Assembly (NCBI GenBank): GCA_029856145.1
Contig: JAHQWK010000007.1
Coordinates: 1 to 52,390 of the forward strand
Source: Promethearchaeia archaeon
GTDB taxonomy: Archaea > Asgardarchaeota > Lokiarchaeia > Sigyniarchaeales > SOKP01
Length of the DNA stretch: 52,390 nucleotides
Direction: 5' to 3'
Shown one piece after another: positions 7,742 to 11,785 of the stretch (position 1 is the first letter of the stretch; every line of letters begins with the position of its first letter). Below the pieces are notes generated by a model. That model did no database searches and had not been told where the DNA came from. It saw nothing but the letters and a program-made list of their open reading frames with translations. Position numbers and translations under genes: made by a program.

Positions 7742-10700
7742 TTGAGAATTTTAATTTTAAGTCATCGGAACCCATATTTTCCTCCCTATATTTTTTTAAA
7801 AATGCCTGAAGCGATTCAAAGAGATGATATCAAACAAGTTCCTTTATTGATAGATCTCTATGATAGCGGTTTTTTTAAACATGCGTTTGGAACTTTTAAA
7901 ACAGCTAATTTAATCTTTGAAATTCCAAGTGAATACTCAAGAACAAAAAAGGAGCGCCTTTTAATTTCACTAGTTATTGATAGCAAATCCAAAATTAATT
8001 CTACTTTAGCCCAAAAGTTTTTAGAGGGACTTGTTGAAGATTTCAAAAAAATCGAAGACGCTTTCAAGGCTTTTTATGTAGACTCTAAAATTTATGAAGG
8101 AGATCCCACTAAACTAGAGGAAATTAGAGCACTTCTAAATGCGTTTAATATTTCTTTTCCAGAAGAAGAAGTCATATTTGAACAAAAAGAGGCAAAAATT
8201 TTAATTTTTGGGCTTTCAGTGGCGGGGAAAACGACAATAATTCGAACGAGAAGAAAATCAGTATCAAAAACAATATTTCCAACTATAAATGTAGACATTT
8301 CTAGAATTTTAGTTAATAATGTATCTTTGTTAACATATGATATACCTGGAAAATATAAAGTTAAGGAAATATGGAAACCTTATTTAAAAAATCAGGATGG
8401 GTTGATTTTTGTTTTAGATGTTACTGATAAAATAAAATTCTCATATGCACGCGAATTACTGCATGAAATTGCCGGAAAACCAGAGTTAAGTGAATTGCCA
8501 CTTCTTATCCTTTTCAATAAAATTGATTTAAAGCAACCAGATATTAATGATCTAGAAGAAGCGATGGGACTGAAGAAACTCGGAAAGAGACCAATAAAAT
8601 CATTTTTGACAAGTGGAATTAAAAACATAAATATTGATGAGGCATTTAATTGGCTTTCACTTAAAATTGCAGAGAGAATTGAACAATATATTCCAAGAAG
8701 AGAGGTCGGGATAATTTTTTGTCGATGGGATGAAAATCTAGGTATTAAAATCGAAGCAGTTCATCCTAAAGATGCTTTTGAGAATCCAGAATTGATATCT
8801 GTTAAAAGTTTTTCAATATCACAGTTTATTTTTGGAGGAGATGAAATTAGACCAACCTCAGTAATTCTTCCATTTCCTCACCTAAATTCAAATGCAGCGA
8901 TTTATTTTGACTATGTCCAAAATGAGAGTATTAGAGGTGGTTTATTACCTTTATCTTTAATAATTTATTACAATGAAAAAATTCCCAAAAATATAATTAA
9001 CCAATTTAGTTCTTTCATTCTTAAACAATTTGATGATATAAAAAAAAATTATTCAAATAAAAAGCAAGTAGTAGATATTCTTGAGTCTATTCACAGTACA
9101 ATAATAAATCAAATTGCTTTATTTCAACCTTCAATTGAAGCACTTAAAATAGCCGAATTACGTTATGAGGCTTTATTTAAAGCGGCTCGAGATGCTATTT
9201 TAATAATTGATAAAAAATCAGGAATAATAATGGATGCGAACAAAGAAGCGGAGAAATTATTTCAACGACCATTTGAAGATTTCATTGGTTTGCATTCAAG
9301 TCAAATATTAAGTGGTATAATTAATATAGATTTTAATGAAGAAGTATTTGATCAACTTAATTATCCATTTCCTTTAAGATTAGAGGTTATTGATAATTCT
9401 GGTAATCTTATTCCAGTTGAAATTAGTGTAAATGAAGTTCAGATGGGGGGTCAAATCTTTGTTCAATACATAATTCGAGATATTAGTAAGAGAATAGAAG
9501 CAGAAATTAAATTAAAGCATTCTGAAATAAAGTATCGTCATCTTTTCAAAGATTCACCCTTTTCTATTCTTTTAATTGATCCTAAAGGTTCTTTAGTTGA
9601 TTTCAATCCTGCTTTAGAAGAAACTTTAGGATATACAAGAGAGGAATTAATGGGAAGAAAATTTGTAGATCTTTCATTAATACATCAAGATTATCTGGTA
9701 GAAGTTCTTAAAAGATTGAAAAAAGAAGAAAGAGGTAAGATTTTTCCTCCATTAGAAATTCAACTCTATCAAAAAAATGGCAAGCTCATTTGGGTAAATA
9801 TGCAATCATCTTTTGTTAATATTGGTGATGAAACCTTTTATCAAATAATTTGTCAGAATATAACAGAACAGAAAAAAATAGAACAGGAATTAAAGAAAAT
9901 TTCTAGATTAAAAGCTATTATTACAGGAATTGTATCAAGATTTGTAGGTATACAAGATTTTAATCAGGCAATAATTGATTCACTTAGAGATGTTGGTGAA
10001 TTTGTTAACGCAACACGAGCATATCTTTATATCTTTAATAATAATTTTAATTTCATAAAAAGAAATTACGTTTGGTATGGTAAGTTGATTTATCCCCAAA
10101 TTAATTTACCTGAAAATATATTAATTAATAATTTTCCATCCGTAATTGAGAAATTAAAAAAATCTGATTATTTTTATGTTAAAAATGTAGATACACTTCC
10201 TAAAGAAGCAATAAATTTAAAGAGTTTTCTTGAAAATCAAAAAGTTAAAAATTTTTTAACATTTTCGGTAAAAATTAATGGGATCTTAGAAGGAATTGTT
10301 TGTTTTGATAATATAAAGGACGAGGATTATTGGATAGAAGAAAATTTAGAATTATTAAGCATTATTTCAGATATTCTTAAAAATGTGATGCTACGTAAAT
10401 TAGCTGAAGAGAATTTACGTATAAGTAAAGAAACTATCCACCAAGAATTTGATAGAGAGTATTTTTATAAAGAGCTATTCGTGAATGATATAAATACAAT
10501 AATTAAGAACATTCAATCATTATTAGACGAATATACCAAGCAAGATAATCAAATTTTATTAAAACCTAAAAGAGAATTATTATTTTATATTAAAGATCAA
10601 TGCATAAACGGTCAACTTTTAATATATATAATAAAAAAATTAACGCTGATTAATGAAACAAATGTTGTAATTAAACCAGTAAATATAAATAATGTAATTG

Positions 10701-11113
10701 ATGACGTTAAAGAATTTATTACAAATAGTTATTCTAATAAACAAATTAATATAATTATTGAACATCCAACTGAGGATCTATATGTAAAAGCTGATAAGTT
10801 TCTAGTAGATGTTTTTGTTAATATCCTTATTAGTTCGATTAGATATAACAAAAGACCTACAATAGAGATTAAAATCATTATCTTTAGAAGTCAAAAGGAT
10901 GACCTAAATTATATTAAAATAAAAATAATCGACTATCAGAAAGAGATTTTAAATATCGGGAAAGAAATGATATTTAAGAAAGAAAGAGAAAAGGATGGTA
11001 AAATTAAAGAAATAATTTTAGGATTTCTATTGGTCGAGCGTGTCTTAAATAATTACAATGGAAAAATATGGGTAGAAGGAGATTCTTTTGTAATTTTATT
11101 ACCCGAAGCTTAA
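7742..11113 (+). CDS. Arf-like small GTPase fused to longin/uDENN-like, 2x PAS, GAF and degenerate histidine-kinase domains
   Basis: GLSVAGKT (G1), PT (G2), DIPG (G3), NKID (G4); PAS starts RYEALFKAARDAILIID and KYRHLFKDSPFSILLID; GAF-like region; degenerate HisKA/HATPase ending NGKIWVEG..FVILLP. Confidence 0.85.
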   Translation: MRILILSHRNPYFPPYIFLKMPEAIQRDDIKQVPLLIDLYDSGFFKHAFGTFKTANLIFEIPSEYSRTKKERLLISLVIDSKSKINSTLAQKFLEGLVEDFKKIEDAFKAFYVDSKIYEGDPTKLEEIRALLNAFNISFPEEEVIFEQKEAKILIFGLSVAGKTTIIRTRRKSVSKTIFPTINVDISRILVNNVSLLTYDIPGKYKVKEIWKPYLKNQDGLIFVLDVTDKIKFSYARELLHEIAGKPELSELPLLILFNKIDLKQPDINDLEEAMGLKKLGKRPIKSFLTSGIKNINIDEAFNWLSLKIAERIEQYIPRREVGIIFCRWDENLGIKIEAVHPKDAFENPELISVKSFSISQFIFGGDEIRPTSVILPFPHLNSNAAIYFDYVQNESIRGGLLPLSLIIYYNEKIPKNIINQFSSFILKQFDDIKKNYSNKKQVVDILESIHSTIINQIALFQPSIEALKIAELRYEALFKAARDAILIIDKKSGIIMDANKEAEKLFQRPFEDFIGLHSSQILSGIINIDFNEEVFDQLNYPFPLRLEVIDNSGNLIPVEISVNEVQMGGQIFVQYIIRDISKRIEAEIKLKHSEIKYRHLFKDSPFSILLIDPKGSLVDFNPALEETLGYTREELMGRKFVDLSLIHQDYLVEVLKRLKKEERGKIFPPLEIQLYQKNGKLIWVNMQSSFVNIGDETFYQIICQNITEQKKIEQELKKISRLKAIITGIVSRFVGIQDFNQAIIDSLRDVGEFVNATRAYLYIFNNNFNFIKRNYVWYGKLIYPQINLPENILINNFPSVIEKLKKSDYFYVKNVDTLPKEAINLKSFLENQKVKNFLTFSVKINGILEGIVCFDNIKDEDYWIEENLELLSIISDILKNVMLRKLAEENLRISKETIHQEFDREYFYKELFVNDINTIIKNIQSLLDEYTKQDNQILLKPKRELLFYIKDQCINGQLLIYIIKKLTLINETNVVIKPVNINNVIDDVKEFITNSYSNKQINIIIEHPTEDLYVKADKFLVDVFVNILISSIRYNKRPTIEIKIIIFRSQKDDLNYIKIKIIDYQKEILNIGKEMIFKKEREKDGKIKEIILGFLLVERVLNNYNGKIWVEGDSFVILLPEA

Positions 11114-11342: not shown

Positions 11343-11648
11343 TTAGTAACGTCTTTTTCCACCGCCACCTTTTCTACCTCCACCAAATGAAAAATCTTGG
11401 CGTGGGGCTTTTTTAGTGACGACCACATTACTAGCTTGTGGACCTTTTTGACCTTCTACGACATCAAATGTTACTTCATCGTTTTCATTCAAGGTCTTAT
11501 ATTCATCATCTTCTCCACTTAATGCAGAGAAATGAACAAACACATCAGATCCATCTTCAGAGTTTATGAATCCAAACCCTTTCCGTGAATTAAACCATTT
11601 TAAATAAACGAGGATTTCTCATTAATTTTTTACGGTTCCGTTTGCCAT
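11343..11648 (-). CDS. cspA: Cold-shock domain protein with a Gly/Arg-rich tail, split by a 30-nt insert: complement(join(11343..11597,11628..11648)), 91 aa
   Basis: Joined translation MANGTVK|[84 protein letters not shown] has intact RNP1 (KGFGFI) and RNP2 (VFVHF). Confidence 0.9.
11598..11627 (-). other. Candidate bulge-helix-bulge (tRNA-type) intron in csp mRNA
   Basis: Insert AATTAATGAGAAATCCTCGTTTATTTAAAA has in-frame TAA TGA, forms a hairpin and gives BHB-like geometry with the exon helix GAACC/GGUUU. Removal restores VK-WFN exactly. Confidence 0.6.
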
Positions 11649-11731
11649 TGTAAATTTTAACCTTTTATTTCTTTATTAAATTATATTTCATCTTTGTTAT
11701 TTTTTATCGTTCAAATAAGTAATACTTGAAC

Positions 11732-11785
11732 AATATTTAAGAAGAATGCTAAGGAATTAAACTTTTGGATGATTTCTTAAATATT
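11732..11785. promoter_or_regulatory. 12-bp perfect inverted repeat upstream of csp
   Basis: aatatttaagaa (11732-11743) / ttcttaaatatt (11774-11785), 30-nt spacer. Confidence 0.3.

Follow-up and report, generated by a model that had tools for sequence, protein, structure and literature searches.

The window (the whole 52,390-nucleotide stretch that was analysed, contig C6 of the host assembly) carries on its minus strand, at 11648-11343, a cold-shock protein (csp) gene whose reading frame is interrupted close to its start by a short insert; letters and coordinates were checked against the stretch. The parts of the gene are as follows.

11628..11648, minus strand: csp exon 1, seven codons (MANGTVK), conserved in intron-bearing relatives, where it shows silent changes
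11598..11627, minus strand: putative 30-nt intron of BHB/BHL type with two in-frame stops, built of 1+9+5+9+4+2 nt
11343..11597, minus strand: csp exon 2 (WFNSRK...), cold-shock domain and Gly/Arg tail, stop included; PF00313 over cut-off
11343..11543, minus strand: GTG-start ORF of 66 aa, the gene callers' version of csp

Read without splicing, the frame gives MANGTVKN followed by two stops, which bears out a preliminary description of this DNA in which the start of csp was said to be split by 30 nt at 11627-11598 with two in-frame stops. That description also held that removing the 30 nt repairs the gene and that the remainder is free of lesions, and the removal does yield an open frame of 91 aa with a Gly/Arg tail. 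Because the insert is edged by runs of A, six registers of removal, from 11632-11603 to 11627-11598, give the identical product. Exon 2 matches PF00313 above its cut-off, and its NCBIfam Csp matches all fall below theirs. The 66-aa GTG ORF lacks the first 25 residues of the spliced protein, the KGFGFI (RNP1) motif among them. The host genome has two other csp paralogues, on contigs C12 (76%) and C11 (55%), both intronless and intact, and the named close relatives of the gene are almost all from Promethearchaeota/Lokiarchaeota (for example Loki_b31, Loki_b32 and GC14_75), which marks the host as an Asgard archaeon of Loki type. Convergent with csp, window positions 7742-11113 (plus strand) encode a 1123-aa protein in which an Arf/Ras-type GTPase domain is fused to PAS domains (Pfam). 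A 13-bp inverted repeat (window 11705-11735, minus strand) precedes the csp start by about 60 nt, and the related gene L150 has a similar one upstream; either an operator function or an RNA hairpin is conceivable.

The host genome is a metagenome bin (3.55 Mb, 97% complete, 30% G+C) with 5.4% contamination, a source that would allow the insert to be an artefact of assembly or binning. However, 15 other contigs (ENA, JGI, Logan), which differ in sample, assembler and archive, also have the csp gene. In 14 of them the insert is the same letter for letter, and in the remaining one, L107, it differs at two intron bases, with the result that the central helix described below becomes perfect and a TAAAA repeat disappears. 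Neighbouring genes are unchanged wherever the contigs are long enough. With insert and neighbours recurring in this way, the chance of an artefact is practically nil, and an insert confined to one assembly, the case that the preliminary description had named as counting against its proposal, is ruled out. The insert is real and near-fixed in the species. No stop or frameshift occurs in the 15 same-species copies, and their eight coding variants, read by eye, comprise four silent changes and four mild ones (S-T, V-I, K-R and, in the tail, G-R).

The RNA around the insert can be drawn as a relaxed bulge-helix-bulge (BHB) with the following elements, the slash marking the predicted cut.

11634..11638, minus strand: exon helix, 5' arm GAACC, which requires the Thr codon ACC; 5/5 pairs in all 10 close alleles
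11630..11633, minus strand: central helix, exon strand GUAA
11627..11629, minus strand: 5' bulge AA/A, predicted cut between 11628 and 11627 by the BHB rule; unique register in six relatives
11604..11626, minus strand: intron hairpin, 9-position stem and loop AAAUC; two-sided changes at 9/9 stem pairs across alleles
11600..11603, minus strand: central helix, intron strand UUAA (UUAC in L107, L150, L153 and L095)
11597..11599, minus strand: 3' bulge AA/U, predicted cut between 11598 and 11597
11592..11596, minus strand: exon helix, 3' arm GGUUU

The endonuclease cleaves BHB motifs just past the second nucleotide in both bulges. Here such cuts would remove exactly the 30 nt and restore the frame, as the preliminary description had it, and in six relatives no register other than the predicted one restores K-W. 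The exon helix has 5/5 pairs, the central helix 3/4 (the exception being a G.A mismatch), both bulges are of 3 nt, and the intron stem pairs at 8 of its 9 positions (one U.U) under a 5-nt loop. The same BHB geometry arose at the site by chance with 0.14% of random genomic 30-mers in 20,000 trials and with 0.03% of shuffled inserts.

The substrate RNA spanning the motif is 47 nt long. The minimum-energy fold in ViennaRNA is a rod with a 3x3 internal loop, at -11.8 versus -4.1 kcal/mol for the forced BHB; for the nine related alleles the program likewise favours a non-BHB rod, by 2-6 kcal/mol. The helices, bulges and hairpin of the preliminary description are thus confirmed as drawn, although they do not form the minimum-energy structure. 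Nor is the productive register the best-scoring one in this allele: against -4.1 kcal/mol for removal of 30 nt, frameshifting removals of 28 and 26 nt score -5.5 and -4.7 kcal/mol. The 28-nt register has a perfect central helix and is better by ~1.4 kcal/mol, a gap that lies within model error for bulged helices. In all nine other alleles (9/9), among BHB folds that keep the exon helix intact, that of the productive register scores best, and a competing register wins in this allele only. The productive register reaches only -4.1 kcal/mol here because of a UUAC to UUAA change in the intron strand of the central helix.

That change could mean weaker or less exact splicing of this allele. Carried further, the argument would be that the class of introns is real and this member of it is decaying, the C-to-A substitution leaving it poorly spliced or spliced at 28 nt while the paralogues supply Csp. 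The closest alleles have UUAC, the register energies point the same way, and a dead csp copy could be compensated for by the intact intronless paralogues on C12 and C11. Yet 14 of the 15 other copies carry this same version of the insert without any other lesion and with only the silent and mild variants listed above; the energy gap is too small for the model; and a central helix of 3/4 recurs in the tRNA-Ser and tRNA-Gln introns of the host. Since the uppS insert (described below) has a mismatch of its own at the corresponding position of the helix, and since the species is close to fixation for this allele, tolerance of a central-helix mismatch seems more likely than impaired splicing, and we regard decay of this allele as improbable.

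Pattern scans and protein look-ups gave a close set of ten alleles, consisting of this one and nine other inserts at the identical K/W codon boundary. Group A (L107, L150 and L153) has inserts of 30 nt; the inserts of group B (L094, L095, which is G148, L096, L098, L099, which is L154, and L100) are of 29 or 30 nt and largely different in sequence. Four of the related inserts are 29 nt long. When the ten are aligned on the structure, 92.6% of cells are paired and 6 pairs show two-sided changes, whereas sliding the partners lowers pairing to 39-49%; of the 9 other close alleles, 7 have a central helix of 4/4. A distant csp paralogue of WFDY type, in genomes G077, G088 and G090, has three further 30-nt inserts at this K/W boundary (L240:1525-1572, L246:1495-1542 and L248:568-615). 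With these added, covariation extends to every one of the 9 stem pairs and to one pair of the central helix (GUGA/UCAC), counts that come from related alleles rather than independent events, on a structure first drawn from one of these sequences. Inserts at the same site with compensatory changes, which the preliminary description had proposed looking for in relatives, therefore exist in nine close alleles and in the distant paralogue. Unless the fold is under selection, it is difficult to see why pairing should be kept while the letters turn over. Moreover, in the six group-B alleles (L094-L096 and L098-L100) the last base of the insert is C or U, with the result that V-K-W is restored by the BHB-predicted register alone.

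The insert pattern was matched in 5 of the 161 genomes of the class, most relatives being without it. A scan of GTDB as a whole for the pattern returned mostly bacterial matches; L133 (the same record as G148) was the only one of its matches confirmed as an insert. Four further candidates, L091, L093, L097 and G087, were rejected as introns because they are short duplications, and a G079 gene bearing the 'spliced' junction sequence proved to be a different, intronless paralogue (64% identical). A search of viral contigs gave no match, nor did Rfam, a search for shorter proteins found nothing, and sigma-70 promoter and terminator scans were uninformative.

The comparison of alleles also bears on two readings in which nothing is spliced. 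The first is that a 25-nt insertion with a TAAAA target duplication inactivated csp and left a pseudogene. This allele does have the direct repeat, and most relatives have no insert. The repeat is missing, however, in L107 of the same species and in every other allele, four of the inserts are 29 nt long, the hairpin covaries, and no 18-mer of the insert occurs on other contigs of the genome, where a transposon-type insertion would be expected to have copies. The second is that protein is made without splicing, whether the ribosome bypasses the insert between AAA codons, reads through the stops or starts at an internal GTG. Here the insert does lie between matched AAA codons, and the 66-aa GTG product is what gene callers give; against this, the landing AAA is missing in nine of the ten alleles, the four 29-nt inserts shift the frame, and the stops vary (TAA, TGA, TAG). 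Both the target duplication and the bypass had been offered as alternatives in the preliminary description, and neither holds across the alleles.

Selection on the exons argues further against a pseudogene and against the internal GTG start. Compared with the intron-bearing gene L150, this csp has dN 0.085 and dS 1.1 over codons 2-74, and dN 0.074 and dS 1.14 over the stretch ahead of the GTG, codons 2-25. On this codon comparison both exons are under purifying selection, with dN/dS of ~0.08, and the conservation of codons 2-25 implies that the protein is maintained continuously from exon 1 into the beginning of exon 2. We consider production of Csp without splicing very improbable and inactivation by a TAAAA-duplicating insertion more improbable still. 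The Thr codon ACC, which the exon helix requires, is present in 10/10 close intron alleles and in 2/64 intronless csp genes.

Inserts of similar size and shape are found in other genes of the genome. The ORFs of 1.2 Mb from a relative that belongs to a different family were used to screen it by homology; the screen covered 294 genes, and the candidates were judged by eye. Four clean frame-breaking inserts of 28-32 nt were recovered, with BHB geometry of 8-10/10, in genes that we take, from motifs and partly from general knowledge, to encode uL11, RNase HII, NifU and an Elf1-like protein; the remaining candidates were repeats or low-complexity noise. The inserts in other genes are the following.

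C28:14768, minus strand: uL11, 28 nt, BHB-shaped, in the genome's only uL11-type gene
C18:41846, minus strand: Elf1-like zinc-ribbon gene, 32 nt, BHB-shaped, immediate stop
C18:61155, plus strand: RNase HII, 30-32 nt, BHB-shaped
C10:33334, plus strand: NifU, 30-32 nt, BHB-shaped
C3:195615, minus strand: uppS, 30-32 nt, BHB/BHL-shaped
C3:203065, plus strand: mevalonate kinase (mvk), 30-32 nt, BHB/BHL-shaped
C2:161153, plus strand: FAD oxidase, 30-32 nt, BHB/BHL-shaped

The four genes from the homology screen are single copy, with no second tblastn match in the genome. The uL11 insert is 28 nt in each of the 14 genomes, of 54 in the genus, that match a strict pattern. The spliced Elf1-like frame has 200 codons, which is long for that family. 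Several of the inserts in RNase HII, NifU, uppS, mvk and FAD oxidase share with csp a 5-nt loop ending in UC. If these core genes are functional, the organism must remove such inserts from its mRNA. A genome scan for ORFs repaired by BHB excision, suggested in the preliminary description, gave 731 candidates when run de novo; these are mostly chance and are not a count of introns.

The host also has the enzymes that such splicing would need: two EndA genes and one RtcB. The EndA subunit on C11 finds its best match in the A. pernix enzyme (E 1.4e-34). Its catalytic residues Tyr, His and Lys are all present, and a K-P-R loop in it aligns with the A. pernix Crenarchaea-specific loop (CSL), a feature linked to broad substrate range (PMC12397907). 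The subunit on C24 lacks the catalytic His in an alignment read by eye. This two-subunit pattern fits an (alpha-beta)2 enzyme, for which the sequences would predict broad specificity. Introns in the host's tRNA genes resemble the csp insert: that of tRNA-Ser(CGA) is 30 nt long with the same build and a central helix of 3/4, and that of tRNA-Gln is 29 nt, also 3/4. ARAGORN listed 19 tRNA genes in the 97% complete bin, several of them spurious, with a tRNA-Sec on C8, and at low threshold it returned noise; the low number suggests that many tRNA genes are hidden by introns or unassembled.

Taken together, the covariation, the unique cut registers, the purifying selection and the presence of the enzyme genes favour the reading that the csp insert is an mRNA intron spliced by EndA and RtcB, to which we give a probability of about 0.85; the core of the preliminary description is to that extent well supported from sequence. 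The csp pre-mRNA would fold into the relaxed BHB, an (alpha-beta)2-type endonuclease would make the two predicted cuts, RtcB would ligate the exons, and the joined mRNA would be translated into the 91-aa cold-shock protein, the csp intron being one of several stereotyped 28-32-nt mRNA introns in the genome. Spliced csp contigs were sought indirectly, and no intronless protein more than 89% identical to this gene was found. Thirteen intronless contigs with near-identical group-B proteins were considered as spliced transcripts and rejected, all having ACA and none ACC.

Splicing had also been proposed to gate Csp expression. This part of the proposal fares poorly: housekeeping genes carry the same kind of insert, two intronless paralogues are present, and the pattern was matched in only 5 of the 161 genomes. 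Removal of the csp intron is most likely constitutive, its apparent lack of regulation being read from these observations. The competing 28-nt register raises the thought of a temperature-dependent register switch that controls Csp output; since that register wins in this allele only, we hold such a switch to be unlikely, and much less likely than a genome-wide spread of introns.

The history of the csp intron appears to be one of exchange as well as gain. Intron-bearing alleles have ACC before the site and a TCN Ser codon after it, whereas intronless genes mostly have ACA and AGY; the combination of ACC and TCN was found in 3 of 135 genomes of the family, two of these with the intron. The TCN codon lies outside the helix and so can be read as a marker of descent, which makes shared descent of the 5' block that it marks more likely. 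In a tree of the 3' exon (174 columns, midpoint root), by contrast, the intron-bearing genes do not form one clade, at least five changes being forced (p-AU 7.6e-6). Between L094 and the intronless L161, the 30 bases that follow the site contain 6 differences and the 180 bases beyond them only 9; L098 and L099 each have an intronless csp ~550-600 bp downstream. These patterns suggest that alleles and tandem paralogues have exchanged sequence by recombination or gene conversion. The intronless csp at L152:611, which has the 3' TCN marker together with a 5' ACA codon, looks like a recombinant. The paralogue of G077, G088 and G090 has neither the ACC nor the TCN marker, and its inserts are probably a separate gain in which the K/W boundary was hit again.

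We therefore lean, with somewhat better than even confidence, towards a broader proposal: that Loki-type Asgard archaea have genome-wide, still-spreading, endonuclease-spliced mRNA introns of ~30 nt, which reached csp genes by recombination of the 5' block and by repeat gain in a distant paralogue. If this is true, coding genes have undergone intron proliferation, with no spliceosome involved, in those prokaryotes that are most closely related to eukaryotes. If the csp insert is indeed a spliced intron, some Asgard archaea depend on tRNA-type splicing for ordinary genes, one ribosomal protein included. Gene calling would then truncate or miss such genes, as with this csp, stored as a 66-aa fragment. 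Such introns can also mimic alternative genetic codes: public gene calls for L150, L153 and L154 read the intron-bearing csp through with TGA=W or TAG=Q.

The nearest precedent is the intron in cbf5 pre-mRNA of Crenarchaeota (Desulfurococcales and Sulfolobales; Watanabe 2002; Yokobori 2009, PMC2738675). Like the csp insert, it is a short coding-sequence intron with a BHB-like motif, patchy among relatives, in hosts whose EndA has a CSL-like loop. However, cbf5 splicing has been demonstrated in RNA and with EndA, whereas csp splicing is deduced from sequence, and cbf5 represents one old intron in one gene, in contrast to csp, an Asgard case whose host genome has introns of this size in several unrelated genes. 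In Haloferax volcanii, HVO_1309 has an EndA-processed mRNA intron, as proposed for csp, but that intron is 46 nt long and lies in the 5' UTR, whereas the csp intron must go for the frame to open; the same paper gives cbf5 as the only other reported BHB intron in archaeal mRNA (PMC7714728). Within the searchable literature, endonuclease splicing inside an archaeal coding sequence is thus documented for cbf5 only (PMC2738675, PMC7714728). Our literature search, which did not cover subscription papers, found no paper on BHB introns in Asgard coding genes and none combining cold-shock protein, intron, archaea and BHB.

Archaeal tRNA introns at 37/38 have the same geometry as that predicted for csp, in which the joined exons form a stem of 5 bp closed by a 7-nt loop. 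Asgard archaea have intron-rich tRNAs with repeated gains at BHB-capable sites, as csp probably has, the substrate there being tRNA rather than mRNA; that account deals with tRNA genes only, and the word 'mRNA' appears in it 0 times (bioRxiv 10.64898/2026.10.13.758758).

If correct, the csp case bears on the first entry of introns into coding genes and on the ancestry of splicing of the XBP1/HAC1 type. In XBP1/HAC1, Ire1 cuts two separate stem-loops under stress, and RtcB or Trl1 ligates the exons. The csp intron would share with these a short non-spliceosomal intron, restoration of the frame on removal and the use of a tRNA ligase, but it differs in presenting a single BHB for the tRNA endonuclease and in showing no sign of regulation.
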